Assembly (NCBI GenBank): GCA_963811425.1
Contig: CAWERV010000018.1
Span: forward strand, 195,332-259,331
DNA from: an uncultured Acidobacteriota bacterium
GTDB lineage: Bacteria; Acidobacteriota; Thermoanaerobaculia; UBA5066; Gp7-AA6
Direction of reading: 5' to 3'
DNA length: 64,000 nucleotides
Positions within the stretch are counted from its first letter, which is position 1. Each line of letters starts with the position of its first letter. Shown piece after piece: positions 34,561-41,868 of the stretch. Below the pieces are notes generated by a model that was given only the letters and a program-made list of their open reading frames with translations, made no database searches and was not told where the DNA came from. The translations under genes and the position numbers were made by a program.

Positions 34561-34773
34561 TCAAAGTTTCGGTGCGGACTCCGGGACGCCCAGGCGCCGC
34601 AGGAACCACATCATCGGACAGGTGCCCGAAAAAGCGGACTGCAGCAAGTTCGCGCCGACGAACGCGGTGAAGAGAAAGAACGCCGGATGGACGAACCATC
34701 CGAGCGCCACCGACAGCAGGACGAATGCTCCCGCAATCCCGCGCAGCCATTCATTGATGGGTTTCCTGGTCAT
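34561..34773 (-). CDS. DUF2892 (YgaP-like) small membrane protein
   Basis: 70-aa product MTRKPINEWLRGIAGAFVLLS...GTCPMMWFLRRLG. Its ATG overlaps the RND stop (ATGA). Confidence 0.65.
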   Translation of the reverse strand: MTRKPINEWLRGIAGAFVLLSVALGWFVHPAFFLFTAFVGANLLQSAFSGTCPMMWFLRRLGVPESAPKL

Positions 34774-37700
34774 GCCAGACTCCTTTCGAGCTCGGACGAG
34801 GAAGCGCCGGCGCCGGCCGCCGACCGTTTCTCCTCCGAGCGTTTGAGCAGGTAATAGAGAACAGGGACGGCCGCCCGCGACAGGAGTGTCGCGGCAACCT
34901 CGCCCGCCATCATCGAGACGGCGAGCCCCTGGAAGATCGGGTCGAGCAGCATCACCGACGACCCGACCACCACGGCGGCCGCCGTCAGGAGCATCGGGCG
35001 GAATCGCACCTCGCCGGCATCGAGCACCGCCTCGGAGAGCCCCATCCCTTCCCGACGGCGCAGCTCGATGAAGTCGACGAGGATGATCGAGTTGCGCACG
35101 ATGATTCCGGCGCCGGCGATGAAGCCGATCATCGAGGTGGCCGTGAAGAAGACTCCGAAGAGCCCGTGCGCCGGAAGGATGCCGACGAGCGTGAGCGGGA
35201 TCGGCGCCATGATGACGAGCGGAACCGTGAAGCTTCGGAACCAGCCGACAACGAGAACGTAAATCAGCACGAGCACGGCGGCGAAAGCGAGCCCGAGGTC
35301 CCGAAACACCTCGTAAGTCACGTACCACTCGCCGTCCCACTTCAGGCCGTAGCGCGCGGTGTCGAACGGCGCCGTCGCCGTACGAGTTGCGATGCGGTAC
35401 CCACCCGGCAAAGCGATCTTCGCGATGCCTTTCTCGAGGGCTGCGATCGCGTACACGGGGGCTTCCTTCCTCCCGCCAACGTCCGCAGTGACATAGACGA
35501 CTGGCTTGAGGTTCTTGTGGTAGATCGATGTCTCCTGCGGCTCCAGTTCGAAGCGGCCGATCTCGGAGAGCGGCACGAGCCGGCCGCCCGCGCCGGGCAA
35601 AGTGAGCCCCGACAAGGCCGTGAAGTCGTGACGCCGCTCCGGCCCGAGCTCGACGACGAGCGGGATCCGCTCGCGGATGTCCGGCAGCTGGATCTCTCCG
35701 GCCGTATCGCGCCCGAGCGCGAGCCGCAGGGTCGCGGCCACGTCCGCCTCGCGGATCCCGGAGAGCCCGGCCTTCTCGCGGTCGAGCCGAAAAACCGCCT
35801 TGTCGCGAGGGCTCTCGACGTACCAGTCGACGTCCACCACGCCCTCGGTGCGGGAGAAGACGTCGCGCACTTTCCGCGCAACCTCGCGCCGGCCGGCGTC
35901 GTCCGGGCCATAGATCTCCGCCACGAGCGTCTCGAGCACCGGTGGCCCCGGCGGCACTTCGGCCACCTTGACGCGCGCGTCGTAGCGCCGGGCCACCGTG
36001 TCGACGATCGGCCGGGCCGCCCGGGCGATGGCGTGGGAGGAGCGATGCCGCTTGCCGCGGGGAGCGAGCGAGACCTGCACGTCGCCCTGGTGCGAACCGG
36101 ACCTCAGGAAGTAGTGACGCACGAGCCCGTTGAAGTTGTAGGGGGCGGCGGTGCCGGCGTAGACCTCGGTGCCGACCACCTCGGGGAGCTGCGACAGCGC
36201 ACTCGCCATCTCGGACAGAGCCCGGTGCGTCGTCTCGAGAGTCGTCCCTTCCTTAAAGTCAACGACGACCTGGAACTCGTTCTTGTTGTCGAACGGCAGC
36301 ATCTTGACGATCACGACACCGAGCGGGAGGAGCGCCATCGCAGCAGCGAGGAGAGCCCCGATGCCCGCAAAGAAGAGGATCCGCGCTCGGCCACCGCCCT
36401 CCGTCACGAGCGGGGTCATTGCCCTCCGGTAAAGCGCGCCGAGCTTGCCGCTCCCGGCCTTGCCGTGCGCGAGCTTTTCCGCGGGCACGCCGCGGAAGAG
36501 CCGGCGTGTCGCCCAGGGAGAGACGGCAAACGCGATGATCAGGGAGAAGAGCATCGCCGCGGAGGCCCCGACGGGGATCGGCCGCATGTAGGGGCCCATC
36601 AGGCCTCCGACGAACCCCATCGGCACGATCGCCGCGATGACAGCAAAGGTCGCCAGGATCGTCGGGTTGCCCACTTCGTCGGTCGCCTCGATCGCGACCC
36701 GGGCGAGTGTGCGGCCCCGCGCGGATGGAAGTCGCAGGTGCCGAACGATGTTCTCGACGACGACGATCGCGTCGTCCACGAGGATCCCGATCGAGAAGAT
36801 CAGCGCGAAGAGCGTGATGCGGTTGAGCGTGTATCCGAGAATCGAGAACACAAAGAGCGTGAGAGCGAGCGTGACGGGCACGGCGAGCAGCACGACGCCG
36901 GCCTCGCGGCGCCCGAGGACGACCGCCATGAGCAGCGCCACCGATAGCGTGGCAATTCCCATGTGCTTCAAGAGCTCGTTGGACTTCTCCGAGGCGGTCT
37001 CCCCGTAGTCGCGCGTCACCGTCGTTCGGACGCCCGACGCAATTAGACGCGGGCGCAGGTGCTCGAGCTTGCGCTCGATCGCGTGAACGACCGTGATCGC
37101 GTTGGCGCCGCGCCGCTTGCTCACCGAAAGCGTCACCGCGGGCAACTGCCCCGCCGTGCCAGGCTGCCCATGTGTCACGTAGGACGACGGTTCTTCGGGT
37201 CCATCGACGACGCGGGCCACGTCGTCGAGGCGAACGGAGCGCCCGCCAGTTTCGGCGACGACGACAGCTCCGAGCTCCTCGGCGCTCCTCACGAAACCGC
37301 CGGCCTCGACGTTGATCTCGCGGTCGCCTGCAACCAGAGCGCCGACGACGGTGCGCCGGCTCGCGGCCTCGAGCGCGCTGAGGACCGCGGTCCCGGAAAG
37401 CCCCCGGGCGGATAGGCGCGCCGGGTCGAGCTCCACGCGGAACTCGCGACGCAGGCCGCCGATGAGCGCCGTATCCGAGACCTCCGGGATCGTCTTGATC
37501 TCATTCTCCACTTCGGCCGCGATCTGCCGCAGCGTCGCGGAGTCCTGCGTTCCGCTCCAGAATGTCATCGCCCAGACAGGCACGTCGTCGATCGAGCGGG
37601 CCTTGATGAGCGGCGGAGCCAGATCGTGAGGCCACTCGCCCGCAAGGGCGTCGAGCTTGCCCCGAACGCGAACTAGCGCGCGATCGGGGTCCTCCCCCAC

Positions 37701-38043
37701 GCGAAAGCGCACGACCAGCATCGCGCGCCCCGGCGAAGAGGTCGAGTACACGTATTCGACCCCAGGGAATCGACCAGAACACCTTCTCGAGGGGACCGAC
37801 GGCCTCACGCTCGACCTCGACCGAGCTGCGGCCCGGCACCGACGCAAACACGTCGATCATCGGAACCTTGATCTGCGGTTCCTCCTCGCGTGGCGTAATG
37901 ACGACGGCGAGTGCACCGAGCGCCAGGGCGAAGAGAACGAAGAGCGGCGTCAGCTTCGAGTCGATGAAGGCTGCGGCCAGACGGCCGGCGACACCGAAGC
38001 GTCGCGGCTCGGGACCCGGGGGACCCGGCAAGTCGGAGCTCAT
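34770..38043 (-). CDS. RND efflux permease (AcrB/CzcA superfamily); one apparent 1-nt insertion near 37764
   Basis: ORF 34770..37847 (1025 aa, 12-TM RND architecture) lacks its N-terminus. That part is encoded from ATG 38043 in ORF 37501..38202 (MSSDLPG...FIDSKLTPLFVLFALALG). Removing one base at about 37764 restores ...FWSIPGVEYVYSTS.... Confidence 0.8.
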
Positions 38044-39089
38044 GGTGTAACCCGCGTACCGGCGTCGAGATCTGCCGGAGGATCGAGGACCACACGCTCC
38101 CCTGCCTCGAGGCCGGATCGAATCTCCACCAGGCCGCCCTTCGCGTGCGCGCCCGTCCGAACGTACCGCAACGCGACGGCGCCACCCGACTCCACCGCCC
38201 ACGCCAGCTCGAGTCCGCCGCGCGCAACGATGGCGCGCTGCGGCGCGAGCAGCCGCATCTCTTTCGGCCCAGCCAGATGCAGGCGCACGAAGGTCCCGAC
38301 CGCCGGCTCGACGCCGGGCGGAAGGTCCACCCGCACCGTGCGGCGCCGCGTAGCCGGATCGATCGCGCCGGCGATTTCGGCGACGCGCCCTGCGTGCGTC
38401 TGGCCATCGACCTCGACGGCCACTTCCTCGCCGATCGCGAGCCGCGCGGCCTCCTGCTCTCCCGGCGCCGCCTCGACGCGCCGGCCCCCGACCGAGGCCA
38501 GCCGCACCAAGGGGCGCCCGGGGATCGCGAGGTCCCCGGGCGAGACGAGCCTCTCGACGACCACGGCGTCGAACGGAGCGACCAGGACGGCCTGCGCGCG
38601 ATCGGTCTCCACGCGTCGCAGCGCGGCCTGCGCCCCGGCGCTTTCGGCGGAGGCCAGCGCCTCGTCCTGGCGCGCTCGGTCGAGCTCGAAGGTGGCAGCG
38701 GCGCCCTTGCCCTCGAGCCGTTCAAATCGCGAGCGATTCTTGCGGGCGAGCGCGAGCGCCGAGTCTGCCGCGGCGACTGCGGCCCGTGCTCCTTCGACCG
38801 CGCCGTCTGCCTCGCGCTGTTCGAGGCGGACGAGGACCTCTCCGGCACGCACCGTCCGGCCGGGCACGGCGCGGACCTCGACCACCGGCGCCGCCAGGCG
38901 GCTCGCGAGCGTGGACTCTGAGCGCCCGACCACCGTGCCGTCGACCTCGACCTCGCTCGCTTCTTGCCGCTGCTCGACCACGGCGGTCGAGAGCGCGCGA
39001 GCGCCAGATGCGGTCGGAGCTTCCGCCTTCCGGGCGCAGCCGCCCGCGGCAAGAGCGACCACTGTCAGGATTCCCAGGATGCGTCTCAA
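38040..39089 (-). CDS. RND periplasmic adaptor (membrane fusion protein), lipoprotein
   Basis: A TTG at 39089 overlapping the tolC stop (TTGA) gives LRRILGILTVVALAAGGC (lipobox). Coiled-coil and beta-barrel MFP character. Its stop overlaps the RND ATG. Confidence 0.75.
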   Translation of the reverse strand: MRRILGILTVVALAAGGCARKAEAPTASGARALSTAVVEQRQEASEVEVDGTVVGRSESTLASRLAAPVVEVRAVPGRTVRAGEVLVRLEQREADGAVEGARAAVAAADSALALARKNRSRFERLEGKGAAATFELDRARQDEALASAESAGAQAALRRVETDRAQAVLVAPFDAVVVERLVSPGDLAIPGRPLVRLASVGGRRVEAAPGEQEAARLAIGEEVAVEVDGQTHAGRVAEIAGAIDPATRRRTVRVDLPPGVEPAVGTFVRLHLAGPKEMRLLAPQRAIVARGGLELAWAVESGGAVALRYVRTGAHAKGGLVEIRSGLEAGERVVLDPPADLDAGTRVTP

Positions 39090-40375
39090 CCCTCGTCTCC
39101 CTCCGGCGGCAGGCCGAGCGCCAGCCGTAGATTCGCGCTGGCGATGATCCCGTCGGCGCCGGCCGCTGCGGCGCCCATCTGGGCCCGCAGCTCCGCCGCG
39201 CGCGCCTCGAGCAGATCGGACAATTTCGCAACCCCTTCCGCGTAGCGCGCCTGCTGGATCTCGCGGGCCTGCCGCGCCGCAGCCTCGGCCTCTTCGAAGG
39301 CTCTCTGTCGCGCGGCCGCGGCCACCAGCTCCGCGCGGGCACGCGTCACTTCGCTCGCCGCGGACCGACGCTCTCCGCGCGCGGCGGCCTCGGCTGAGCG
39401 AGCCGCGGCCCGCGCCTCGGCGACGCGGGCATCGATGCCACCCGAGGCGAAGATGGGGACGCGGAAGCCCGCGAAAACCGTCGCGGAAGTGCCATACCGG
39501 CCGCCCGGCGTCGGCGCGTGCAGCTCGTACAGTCCCGAAAGAACGAGTGTCGGCCAACGGGAGGCAGCCGCCGCGCGCTCCGACTCCTGCGCCGCCGAAG
39601 CGGCGAGCGTCGCTGCCGCGACGTCGGCCCGCTCGGAGGACGCCTCCGGCGGAGAGGGAGGCGTCGGCGGCAACTGTGCGAGCGGACGAGCCGCGGCCGC
39701 CGCTCCGATGAGGGCACCGAGAGCCGCCCGCGAAACTTCGAGGGCGGCCTGCTGCCCAGCGCGCTCGGCTCGCACCTCCGCCAGCGCCGCCCGTGCGCGT
39801 GCCGGGTCGGCGGCCGTCGTCAGACCTTCCTCGGCCAGAGCCGCGGCAATGGCGACGTCCTCCTCGGCGTCGGCCTCCCGCTGGCGCAGGATTTCGAGCG
39901 CATCCTCGGCTCGCCTCGCCTCCGAAAAGGCGGCGATGGCCTGAAACACGGCCATGTCCCGAGCCCGCTGCGAGGCGAGGTCTGCCGCCCCGGCCGCATC
40001 GACAGACGCCCGCGCAGCGGCCCGCGTGGCGCCAAAGAGATCGACCGTCCAGGCCGCGGCGAGCGAACCGCTCCAGTCCCTCGTAAAGGAGGGCTGGTTC
40101 GGATCCGAGGCAAAGAACTCCTCCGCCGAAAACCGCTTCTGCTCGAGTGCCAGAGAGAAGGCCGTCACGGGATTGTCCGAGGAGAGGAAGCCGGCATTGA
40201 CGAAAAGCGAGGGACCGAGCAGAGACCGCGCCCCGGCCTGCCGGGCCCGCGCGCCTTGGCTGTCGGCGCGCGCCCGTTCGACGGCGGGTGCACCCGCTGC
40301 GGCGAGCGCAGCCGCCTCCCGGAGCGTCAGCGGCTCCGAAACGGTCGCGACGGCGAAGAGAAGGCCAAGCAGCAC
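39086..40375 (-). CDS. TolC-family outer-membrane efflux protein
   Basis: Intact 429-aa ORF with GTG start at 40375. Two-repeat Ala-rich coiled-coil composition typical of outer membrane factors. Confidence 0.75.
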   Translation of the reverse strand: MLLGLLFAVATVSEPLTLREAAALAAAGAPAVERARADSQGARARQAGARSLLGPSLFVNAGFLSSDNPVTAFSLALEQKRFSAEEFFASDPNQPSFTRDWSGSLAAAWTVDLFGATRAAARASVDAAGAADLASQRARDMAVFQAIAAFSEARRAEDALEILRQREADAEEDVAIAAALAEEGLTTAADPARARAALAEVRAERAGQQAALEVSRAALGALIGAAAAARPLAQLPPTPPSPPEASSERADVAAATLAASAAQESERAAAASRWPTLVLSGLYELHAPTPGGRYGTSATVFAGFRVPIFASGGIDARVAEARAAARSAEAAARGERRSAASEVTRARAELVAAAARQRAFEEAEAAARQAREIQQARYAEGVAKLSDLLEARAAELRAQMGAAAAGADGIIASANLRLALGLPPEGDEG

Positions 40376-40381
40376 GGCGAG

Positions 40382-40415
40382 CTTGACTATATGAGTATAT
40401 AGCTATATAGTCAAG
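40382..40415. promoter_or_regulatory. Palindromic operator carrying two overlapping mirror-image promoters (tolC operon and arsR)
   Basis: CTTGACTATAT-n12-ATATAGTCAAG has perfect 11-bp arms. Read on either strand it gives TTGACT-n17-TATAGT. It is an AT-rich island lying 7 nt from the tolC GTG (40375) and 5 nt from the arsR GTG (40420). Confidence 0.65.
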
Positions 40416-40419
40416 TACT

Positions 40420-40824
40420 GTGAATTCCTCAGTTTTCGGCTACCCTCTACCCGTGGCGACCCTCAGCCCGCTCTCAGAGCGTGCCCGCGAGCGCATCGCC
40501 GAGCGCTTTCGTGCTCTGGGCGAGCCGATGCGCCTCAAGATCCTCGAGCGCCTCTTTCGCTCGCCCGCATCGGTCGGAGACATACTGGGTTCCGTTGGCG
40601 GCACACAGGCCAACGTCAGCAAGCACCTCGCCCTACTCCACGCGGGCGGCCTCGTCCGGCGGCGGCGCGAAGGTCTCAAGACTGTCTATTCGATCGCCGA
40701 CCCCACTCTCGAGCGCATTTGCGCGATCGTCTGTGACGCGGTAGCGCGTGACGCACGTGAGGAGGCTGAGGCCACGGCTCCTGCCACCGTCCAGTCCCGC
40801 TCCGCGCGCCGCAAGCACCGGTAG
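40420..40824 (+). CDS. ArsR/SmtB-family transcriptional regulator
   Basis: The FRALGEPMRLKILERL...VGDILGSVGGTQANVSKHLALLHAGGLV winged-HTH signature. The start may instead be the GTG at 40453. Confidence 0.8.
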   Translation: MNSSVFGYPLPVATLSPLSERARERIAERFRALGEPMRLKILERLFRSPASVGDILGSVGGTQANVSKHLALLHAGGLVRRRREGLKTVYSIADPTLERICAIVCDAVARDAREEAEATAPATVQSRSARRKHR

Positions 40825-40878
40825 CGTCGAGCGGATGGAGCAATTGCAGTGGTATGGTCTTCCGAAGACGGAGGGGGT

Positions 40879-41241
40879 ATGAAGACTCGCCGCGCGCTGC
40901 TCTTCGCCGCTCTGATCTCGTTCACGATAGCGTCTGCCTTGGCACTTCCAGAGAAGACCGCGGTGCTGGAGGTAACCTTCTACTACCTGCCCGGCTGACC
41001 GATTTGCGCAAAGATCAAGCCCGCCGTGAGCGGGTTGGAGCAGGAGTACAAGGGCAGGGTCCGGGGCCAGAACCTGGACGCGACAACTGCCGAGAACAAG
41101 AAGATCGTTCAGTCGCTCGGCTTCGAGGACCACGGCCTCGTCATTCGTTCCGCTGACGGCAGGGTTCTCTGGAAGCAGCCCGACCACCAGGTGAAGATCG
41201 AGGACGTGCGCGGGGAGCTCGAGAAGCTACTTTCGAAATAG
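40879..41241 (+). CDS. Secreted thioredoxin-fold selenoprotein candidate (paralog of 17962..18321); in-frame UGA at 40996-40998
   Basis: ATG at 40879 follows GGAGGGGG, then a signal peptide. Reading through TGA 40996 joins in frame to ORF 41026..41241: ...LEVTFYYLPG-U-PICAKIKPAVSGLEQEYKG.... Confidence 0.75.
41018..41036 (+). promoter_or_regulatory. Putative bacterial SECIS hairpin (second copy)
   Basis: Same AGCCCGC-CGUGA-GCGGGUU hairpin at the same distance from the UGA as at 18098. Confidence 0.55.
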
Positions 41242-41250
41242 CCGCAGCTG

Positions 41251-41868
41251 ATGGATGACAGGAAGCACTGGGACGCTGTTTACACGACGAAGGGTCCGGA
41301 GAACCTAAGCTGGTTCCGGCCTCACCTCGAGCGGTCACTCGCGTTCCTCGATGCCGCGAAACTCCCAAAGACCGCCGCCGTAATCGATGTCGGCGGTGGT
41401 GCGTCGACCCTGGTCGACGACCTCCTGGACCGCGGGTACTCGAACATCACCGTGTTGGACCTGTCCAACGCAGCCCTGGAAGCGGCACGGGCCCGCCTCG
41501 GCAAGCGCGCGGAACGAGTCCATTGGATCTGCGCCGACATCACGGACGCTACACTGCCCCACAGCGCTTACGACTTCTGGCACGACCGCGCCGTGTTTCA
41601 CTTTCTCCGCGATTCCGCAGCGCGCTCTCGATACGTTGAGGCTGTTCGAAGATCACTCAAGCCAGGGGGGCACATCGTTGTCGCCACATTCGGGCCGCAT
41701 GGCCCGGAAAAGTGCAGCGGCCTAGAGGTCTTGCACTTCTCTCCCGAGGCGCTTCACGACGAGTTCGGACCTGAGTTTGCACGGCTCGCGAGCACGACGG
41801 AGATACACACCACGCCGTGGGGCGCCGAGCAGGAGTTCGTCTACTGCTATTGCCGAATGCCTTACTGA
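41251..41868 (+). CDS. Class I SAM-dependent methyltransferase
   Basis: Intact 205-aa ORF with SAM-binding motif I VIDVGGGAS and post-I acidic residue (VLDLS). Substrate not inferable. Confidence 0.75.
   Translation: MDDRKHWDAVYTTKGPENLSWFRPHLERSLAFLDAAKLPKTAAVIDVGGGASTLVDDLLDRGYSNITVLDLSNAALEAARARLGKRAERVHWICADITDATLPHSAYDFWHDRAVFHFLRDSAARSRYVEAVRRSLKPGGHIVVATFGPHGPEKCSGLEVLHFSPEALHDEFGPEFARLASTTEIHTTPWGAEQEFVYCYCRMPY

Follow-up and report, generated by a model that had tools for sequence, protein, structure and literature searches.

Results

Genes flanking the divergent intergenic region

The window, by which we mean the whole 64,000-nucleotide stretch of DNA analyzed here, contains an efflux operon and an arsR-family gene that are divergently oriented. 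Measured between the first possible start codons, the tolC GTG at 40375 on the minus strand and the arsR GTG at 40420, the gap between them is 44 nt, in agreement with the preliminary description of this locus. The genes are:

34561..34773, minus strand: DUF2892 gene (YgaP-like transmembrane protein; profile YgaP-like_TM), with an ATG at 34773 overlapping the RND stop codon (ATGA)
34770..37990, minus strand: RND permease (ACR_tran), with a frameshift near 37765 in the assembly; the upper coordinate is approximate
38040..39089, minus strand: membrane-fusion (adaptor) lipoprotein (HlyD_D23, HlyD_3; lipobox), with a TTG start at 39089 overlapping the tolC stop codon (TTGA)
39086..40375, minus strand: tolC-like outer-membrane factor, 429 aa, GTG start, first gene of the operon (OEP domain)
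40420..40824, plus strand: arsR-family repressor, 134 aa, GTG start (HTH_5 and NF033788 above cut-off)

Profile searches bear out the identities previously proposed for the OEP/TolC, RND, DUF2892, and ArsR proteins. The membrane-fusion protein is also present, but its HlyD_D23 and HlyD_3 matches lie in another frame than the one first assigned, that of ORF 38040..39557, and ORF 37805..39052 was rejected as the membrane-fusion gene since it has no Pfam match. Translation of this gene likely starts at TTG 39089, which is followed by a lipoprotein signal (…LAAGGC). The downstream genes of the pump operon have Shine-Dalgarno-like sites and overlapping stop and start codons.

Two further observations concern the surroundings of the module. 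The RND permease is split, with ACR_tran positions 5-71 in ORF 37501..38202 and positions 72-1020 in ORF 34770..37847. The frame breaks between ...FWSIP and GVEYVY... (~37760-37850 in the window), whereas a single frame covers the gene in five orthologous loci; either the assembly has a one-base error here or the operator-controlled pump gene is truly a pseudogene. The selenoprotein and SAM-methyltransferase genes at 40854-41868 were considered as part of the module and set aside, as they have no counterpart downstream of orthologous arsR genes; they appear to be a lineage-specific addition beside a tRNA-Lys cassette array.

A conserved, A+T-rich inverted repeat occupies the gap

The intergenic region has a G+C content of 46%, against a background of 65-80%, and contains the following feature:

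40382..40415, no strand assigned: 34-bp inverted repeat, with perfect 11-nt arms, a partly symmetric 12-nt center, and a dyad axis between 40398 and 40399

Read from the window sequence, the element is CTTGACTATAT-GAGTATATAGCT-ATATAGTCAAG, that is, CTTGACTATAT-N12-ATATAGTCAAG. A repeat finder places the arms at 40382-40392 and 40405-40415, each 11 nt long and separated by 12 nt, with 100% complementarity. Within the center, symmetry is confined to the middle TATATA, and the match falls to 85% when the arms are extended to 20 nt. The earlier designation as a perfect palindrome thus holds for the 11-nt arms but not for the whole element, the center of which is only partly symmetric.

Taken alone, a bare inverted repeat is a weak statistical case, because G+C-rich repeats of equal length arise by chance: Markov simulations yield ~1.3 perfect inverted repeats of at least 11 nt per 64 kb, and these are G+C-rich. 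In the 4.4-Mb genome, only seven places have an inverted repeat with A+T-rich arms. A search for the half-site, which the preliminary description had proposed, was carried out across the assembly (4.4 Mb in 31 contigs, 90% complete) and returned the element's own two arms as the only exact matches. The three matches with one mismatch are all solitary, with no inverted partner nearby, and a control pattern, the half-site read backwards, gave more genome matches than the real one. A weight-matrix scan of the genome likewise found no second site for the central 20-mer. The uniqueness of the site argues for a local regulon and against a wider one.

The window corresponds to C18:195332-259331 of the assembly. 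The nearest public relatives of the source organism, an uncultured soil acidobacterium, are uncultured Acidobacteriota of the class Thermoanaerobaculia. Of the 36 further genomes in the genus, 10 encode the ArsR protein, which is also present in a sister family. In each of 18 species-level Thermoanaerobaculia genomes, where identities are 63-91% for ArsR and 54-87% for TolC, the element recurs between tolC and arsR, and the gene order is DUF2892-RND-MFP-TolC <> ArsR throughout (18/18 loci). A 32-bp core (40383-40414) is nearly invariant among these genomes, whereas the adjoining bases are randomized, and the aligned elements give a sharply bounded consensus, TTGACTATATGA-sy-ATATrG-y-TATATAGTCAA. 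This conservation across 18 species settles that the element sequence is under selection. In the corresponding logo, information content is ~1.85 bits per position in the blocks matching promoter hexamers, ~1.45 in the inner, non-hexamer stretch 40392-40405, and ~0.3 in the flanks. The conserved inner bases (T/G/A at 40392-40394, ATAT at 40397-40400, G at 40402, and TA at 40404-40405) are unexplained by promoter hexamers and point to a bound protein.

These properties bear on the alternative that the palindrome is no protein-binding control site but a structural element (a cruciform, RNA hairpin, or terminator) or a relic of a mobile element. The length and deviant composition of the inverted repeat would accord with this, but the element matches no Rfam family and is present in a single copy in the genome, its stem is A+T-rich and lacks a T tract, no terminator-like site is predicted there, and its position between the same two genes is constant. 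Because the conserved, non-complementary center in addition argues for sequence-specific recognition over base pairing, we regard a purely structural role as extremely improbable.

The same 32-bp element was also observed on a contig labeled as an uncultured member of the Gaiellaceae (Actinomycetota), beside an arsR that is 69-73% identical. The arsR gene there is split by a frameshift and tolC is present only as a fragment; the contig is either a mis-binned piece of an acidobacterial genome or the product of horizontal transfer.

Two predicted promoters in mirror image

Both strands of the element read TTGACT-17-TATAGT, with 10 of 12 consensus matches each, and no such sites (0.0) were obtained in 50 shuffles of the region. 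The predicted promoter elements are:

40383..40388, plus strand: -35 hexamer TTGACT of the predicted arsR promoter (consensus scan; TTGAC invariant in 17-18 of 18 loci)
40406..40411, plus strand: -10 hexamer TATAGT of the predicted arsR promoter (T1, A2, G5, and T6 invariant; the arsR GTG is at the 9th base after it)
40409..40414, minus strand: -35 hexamer TTGACT of the predicted tolC-operon promoter (Verrucomicrobiota relatives have TTGACA at the matching place)
40386..40391, minus strand: -10 hexamer TATAGT of the predicted tolC-operon promoter (the tolC GTG is at the 11th base after it)

The -35 hexamer of each promoter had been described as overlapping the -10 hexamer of the other, and it does so by 3 bp on each side: the plus-strand -35 (40383-40388) shares 3 bp with the minus-strand -10 (40386-40391), and the mirror overlap is found opposite. 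The two -10 hexamers are 14 bp apart.

A match to consensus hexamers is by itself no proof of function. In the 18 species, however, both hexamer pairs are conserved, which upholds the earlier proposal of two mirror-image sigma-70-type promoters at the level of prediction. Variation within the -10 hexamers is limited to positions 3 and 4, and T1, A2, and T6 are fixed, as expected of working -10 elements; neither A2 nor T6 ever varies. TTGAC is likewise fixed in the 18-sequence alignment, with the exception of one TAGAC.

The mirror-image pair is unusually canonical for its genome. Among 249 leaderless-type promoters of this genome (see below), only 13 have a TTG -35 element at a spacing of 16-18 bp. 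A strong -35 is therefore out of the ordinary for this genome, and TTGAC might also serve as a contact for protein. The mirror geometry was found at this locus only, among 359 promoter-like sites of the genome, and the idea that it is a general habit of the genome was therefore rejected.

arsR and tolC are predicted to be leaderless or nearly so

The preliminary description had left a choice between leaderless or near-leaderless mRNAs and start codons further downstream than annotated. Downstream starts can be ruled out. Translation of arsR cannot begin before GTG 40420, because an in-frame TAG is located at 40408-40410, and this GTG is the only possible start upstream of a conserved N-terminal (F/C)GYP motif, which synonymous variation between species shows to be translated. 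TolC requires its signal peptide, which in all orthologs starts with the first codon. The other option, leaderless or near-leaderless mRNAs, agrees with the distances observed: the first in-frame start of either gene comes 6-12 nt after the -10 hexamer in 18/18 loci, with a candidate arsR start at the 9th base in 13 of them and tolC starts at the 7th-12th, while the few bases between the -10 hexamer and the start codon vary freely. The 44-bp gap also leaves no room for a Shine-Dalgarno site before either gene. With a -10 hexamer a few bases before the start codon and no Shine-Dalgarno site, arsR and tolC both have the predicted hallmarks of leaderless genes.

A genome-wide survey of 2405 long, high-GC3 ORFs gave a matching picture. 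TANNNT hexamers are concentrated 7-10 nt ahead of start codons; with the start codon at bases 7 to 12 after the hexamer, the counts were 84, 35, 43, 49, 20, and 19, over a background of ~9, and the main peak is at base 7. The control hexamer ATNNNT gave a flat profile (TNNNAT was dropped as a control since it overlaps TATAAT-like -10 hexamers). About 249 of the 2405 ORFs have a TANNNT hexamer with the start codon 7-12 nt downstream, most of them without a recognizable TTG -35, and a separate Shine-Dalgarno peak is seen at a spacing of 5-8. After matches to TTGNNN-N16-18-TANNNT, long ORFs begin at positions 7-12 ~2.3 times more often than further downstream. These statistics point to leaderless or near-leaderless mRNAs as a frequent feature of the genome, and arsR and tolC fit the same range of distances. 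Because their starts, at bases 9 and 11, fall beyond the main peak (base 7), short leaders of 2-4 nt or an unusual choice of start site must be assumed.

This offset is one reason to consider that one or neither promoter is functional, that transcription of at least one gene starts inside the coding region of its neighbor to give a longer leader without a Shine-Dalgarno site, and that the palindrome serves purely as a roadblock or operator; the limited weight of consensus matches is another. We judge this quite improbable on several grounds. No other promoter-like site was found within 39800-41000, the leaderless-type start distance has been kept in 18 species despite free variation of the intervening bases, leaderless genes seem common in this genome, and Shine-Dalgarno sites precede the genes internal to the operon but would not fit before the two first genes.

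The inner dyad as candidate operator

If the outer hexamers serve as promoters, the conserved bases between them call for a different explanation, and comparison with more distant relatives suggests one. The feature in question is:

40391..40406, no strand assigned: inner dyad ATGAGTATATAGCTAT (ATGAGT-ATAT-AGCTAT), imperfect, 16 bp, half-site centers 11 bp apart; proposed ArsR operator

Distant arsR homologs from Verrucomicrobiota, other Thermoanaerobaculia, a Balneolales genome, and Pyrinomonas carry an upstream ATAAC-N6-GTTAT dyad (for example, ATAACCATATAGTTAT). Allowing up to one mismatch and searching from -130 to +20 of 78 loci, we found AT[AG]AC-N6-G[CT]TAT before 31 of the 78 arsR homologs, from several phyla. 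This frequency is ~70 times the background elsewhere in the same loci, where there were 29 matches in 766,610 bp (0.0057 per 150 bp). The center of the window's palindrome, ATGAGTATATAGCTAT, is this clade-wide dyad on the same axis, and some orthologs match the dyad at 15 of 16 positions (ATGACCATATAGTTAT). The recognition helix, TQANVSKHL, is identical in the window's ArsR and the distant homologs.

The placement of the dyad in relatives separates the two parts of the element. In a sister Thermoanaerobaculia group the 17-bp spacer of TTGAAA-N17-TAGGTT contains it, and the Verrucomicrobiota loci have it within the promoter of a divergent ygaP-like gene, TTGACA-N16-TAnnnT. The outer TTGAC blocks thus act like -35 elements, and the inner dyad acts like the operator of the clade. 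Consistent with this assignment, in the crystal structure of SqrR bound to DNA an ArsR-family dimer reads successive major grooves (preprint 10.64898/2026.05.15.721447), so half-sites 11 bp apart would suit one ArsR dimer, whereas arm centers 23 bp apart would be out of its reach. The outer arms, 23 bp apart, are best read as shared -35/-10 hexamers. Thus, of the earlier proposal that one dimeric ArsR shuts both promoters, the shared repressor site gains support from the conserved non-hexamer spacer, but the 11-nt arms are not supported as the half-sites of one dimer. An inverted repeat lying over the predicted promoters of arsR and its neighbor, and conserved beside arsR in 18 species, has the attributes of an ArsR-family operator.

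The main competing explanation is that two ArsR dimers (a dimer of dimers) bind an extended operator that takes in the whole 32-34-bp palindrome, with the TTGACTATAT arms as protein-contact half-sites and the likeness to promoter hexamers secondary. Some ArsR/SmtB proteins are known to load more than one dimer per operator. All 32 bp are conserved, beyond the hexamers, the element contains nested repeats (TGACTATA/TGAGTATA, direct and 8 bp apart, and TGAGTATATAG/CTATATAGTCA, inverted and adjacent), and canonical -35 elements are rare among the leaderless promoters of the genome, all of which would accord with a larger operator. However, the two-sided TTGAC is group-specific: in Verrucomicrobiota relatives that share the recognition helix, TTGACA is confined to one side, precisely the one where a -35 for the divergent gene is needed. 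In addition, variation in the arms tracks the information content of -10 and -35 elements, and both genes need a promoter in the 44-bp gap or else inside the neighboring gene. On balance, we consider a two-dimer operator unlikely.

Two findings count against the inner dyad as the operator of a single dimer. The conservation of TGA at 40392-40394 is asymmetric. Furthermore, a second set of Thermoanaerobaculia (group B, 62-70% identity) has the same recognition helix as the window's ArsR but altered half-sites, with cATTGAC-N17-GATGAT followed by ATCGCCATATGGCGAT centered on a leaderless ATG.

The group B loci (L047, L049-L069, in a sister family) show this arrangement ~60 nt upstream of the arsR match. 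There, ATCGCCATATGGCGAT is a 16-bp palindrome, the ATG within it is at the 7th base after the -10 hexamer, and the arsR genes are frequently present as two tandem copies that follow a co-directional TolC-RND cluster. In the Verrucomicrobiota loci L081, L084, and L094-L112, arsR diverges from a ygaP-like gene of ~190 aa (rhodanese domain with a DUF2892 tail). The -35 of the ygaP-like promoter is the reverse complement of arsR's ATG TCA A, which explains why the Ser codon of arsR is always TCA. A start at the 7th base downstream of the -10 hexamer is frequent for the ygaP-like gene (several loci), which suggests that this gene is leaderless.

An ArsR-family protein with a probable thiol sensor

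The regulator scores above cut-off for HTH_5 (32.2 bits versus 22) and NF033788 (77.1 bits versus 55), and its matches among solved structures are all ArsR-family proteins, the best being the non-metal regulator Rv0081 (E = 1.6e-12). It is a member of the ArsR family that falls outside all characterized subgroups: the match to Rv0081 reaches only that E-value, the score for the BigR equivalog NF040642 is low (31.5 bits versus a cut-off of 155), that for CmtR is also far below its equivalog cut-off, and identity to E. coli YgaV is 32%. The region upstream of E. coli ygaV contains no similar dyad and, given this and the low identity, ygaV was dropped as an operator reference.

In the alignment, the canonical metal motifs (alpha-3N CXC and alpha-5 DxHx10HxxE/H) are absent: there is no Cys in alpha-3 and no His/Asp/Glu motif in alpha-5. 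In place of the latter, alpha-5 has a conserved C-x3-C (ICAIVCD). The window's ArsR also lacks the sensing Cys pair that SqrR/BigR/YgaV persulfide sensors have in alpha-2 and alpha-5, its alpha-2 (KILERLF) being free of Cys. The sensor is probably thiol-based. The CxxxC in alpha-5 is conserved in Thermoanaerobaculia, and the Verrucomicrobiota relatives have SqrR/BigR-like cysteines in alpha-2 and alpha-5.

The arrangement of sensor cysteines varies within the clade. Among the homologs, C-x3-C in alpha-5 (the window protein's own residues ~100-106) was seen in Thermoanaerobaculia, Pyrinomonas, and two Opitutae-group (Verrucomicrobiota) loci. Other Verrucomicrobiota relatives have a single Cys in alpha-2, one in alpha-5, and one in the beta-hairpin. 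Several ArsR orthologs have an N-terminal Cys beside the (F/C)GYP motif, which the window's protein is without.

Discussion

Our results support, with moderate confidence, a model in which the gap is a composite control region: a central-dyad ArsR operator inside two fully overlapping mirror-image promoters that produce near-leaderless mRNAs. From sequence, conservation, and genome statistics, we infer the promoters and their activity, the transcription start sites, the binding and stoichiometry of the repressor, and the inducer. In the model, two sigma-70-type promoters with identical hexamers and 17-bp spacers would overlap in full, and each 9-bp block TTGACTATA would provide both the -35 of the outward promoter (firing away from the block) and, on the other strand, the -10 of the inward promoter (firing towards the block). 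Transcripts would begin 0-4 nt before the arsR and tolC GTG codons and hence be leaderless or nearly so. The adjacent ArsR-family repressor would bind the central dyad at 40391-40406, where one dimer would fill both spacers and touch the inner edge of both -10 hexamers, blocking RNA polymerase both ways. A thiol-reactive inducer would modify the sensor cysteines (CxxxC, helix alpha-5) and thereby release the repressor. Once it is gone, polymerase would be able to bind in either orientation but never in both at once.

A more ambitious version of this model combines the 32-bp core as a two-way switch with an old, portable arsR cassette, sulfur- or selenium-responsive export, and symmetrization by a 1-bp change. 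Both polymerase orientations may compete for one symmetric site of equal strength, and, after the repressor leaves, regulator and pump may fire mutually exclusively at a ratio of ~1:1. The cassette, consisting of arsR and a 30-bp operator-promoter, may be common to Acidobacteriota and Verrucomicrobiota and may always govern DUF2892/YgaP-linked export genes, with reactive sulfur or selenium species as inducers. In Thermoanaerobaculia, a 1-bp change may have turned the ancestral arsR start ATATGTCAA into the second -10 hexamer ATATAGTCAA. We consider it doubtful that all of these parts hold together.

To our knowledge, the source class of Acidobacteria has never been cultured and its transcription signals are essentially unknown. 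In this context, our analysis indicates that leaderless mRNAs are common in the class, as ~8-10% of the long ORFs tested carry the signature. It also defines a predicted cross-phylum operator, ATAAC-N6-GTTAT, for an uncharacterized ArsR clade linked to DUF2892/YgaP genes. Promoter and operator information is highly compressed at this locus, with every base of TTGACTATA predicted to serve two promoters, and the 44-bp gap is a concrete, synthesizable regulatory part. If the geometry works as predicted, compact two-way expression parts could be modeled on it, and it would lend itself to the study of polymerase competition at fully overlapping promoters. The current understanding of repression is unchanged by the locus.

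Among the known systems closest to the present one are the persulfide-sensing ArsR regulators SqrR, BigR, and YgaV. The resemblance to these proteins, and to the E. coli ygaVP system, lies in the Verrucomicrobiota relatives, which adjoin divergent ygaP-like genes and have cysteines in alpha-2 and alpha-5, and in the DUF2892 gene that ends the window's operon. In contrast, the window's ArsR has no alpha-2 Cys and scores far below the BigR cut-off. SqrR itself reads ATTC half-sites (10.64898/2026.05.15.721447). As in the ArsR/SmtB systems (SmtB-smtA, ZiaR-ziaA, CzrA, NmtR, and CadC, with their 12-2-12 sites), a winged-helix repressor adjoins an efflux system and an A+T-rich inverted repeat lies over the promoter. 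However, the dyad here is AT[AG]AC-N6-G[CT]TAT and not the TGAA...TTCA core, and the alpha-3N and alpha-5 metal motifs are absent while CxxxC is present in alpha-5.

The predicted promoters also invite comparison with the bidirectional promoters of Warman and Grainger, in which -10 elements overlap and start sites are 10, 18, or 23 bp apart (PMC12825309; bioRxiv 10.1101/2020.01.31.928960). In that class, a pseudo-symmetric sequence engages polymerase either way, the binding of one polymerase excludes the other, and the gene pairs often comprise a regulator and its target, for example acrA/acrR. The element does not belong to it: the -10 hexamers at 40386-40391 and 40406-40411 are separate, 14 bp apart, and each overlaps the -35 of the opposing promoter. 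A distance of ~39-45 bp is predicted between the start sites. Warman-type geometry, with overlapping -10-like hexamers on both strands, was observed elsewhere in the genome in two copies of GTCTAGCGTTTTGACGTTAAGAC (C10:147339 and C15:177316), which look like a repeated element.

The closest parallels in design are tetA/tetR of Tn10 and bioA/bioBFCD of E. coli, the latter with the 40-bp bioO palindrome, in which overlapping divergent promoters share one operator region. As predicted from its sequence and from conservation, the present locus likewise has overlapping divergent promoters and one shared operator. The likeness extends to divergent transcription, overlapping polymerase footprints, and a symmetric operator that shuts both ways. 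In contrast to tetA/tetR and bioO, the promoters here are exact mirror images that share bases through their 3-bp -35/-10 overlaps, and the whole intergenic region is only 44 bp, with both first genes apparently leaderless as far as sequence can predict. Thus, the locus is a conserved, compact variant of the known design of overlapping divergent promoters under one operator rather than a new mechanism.
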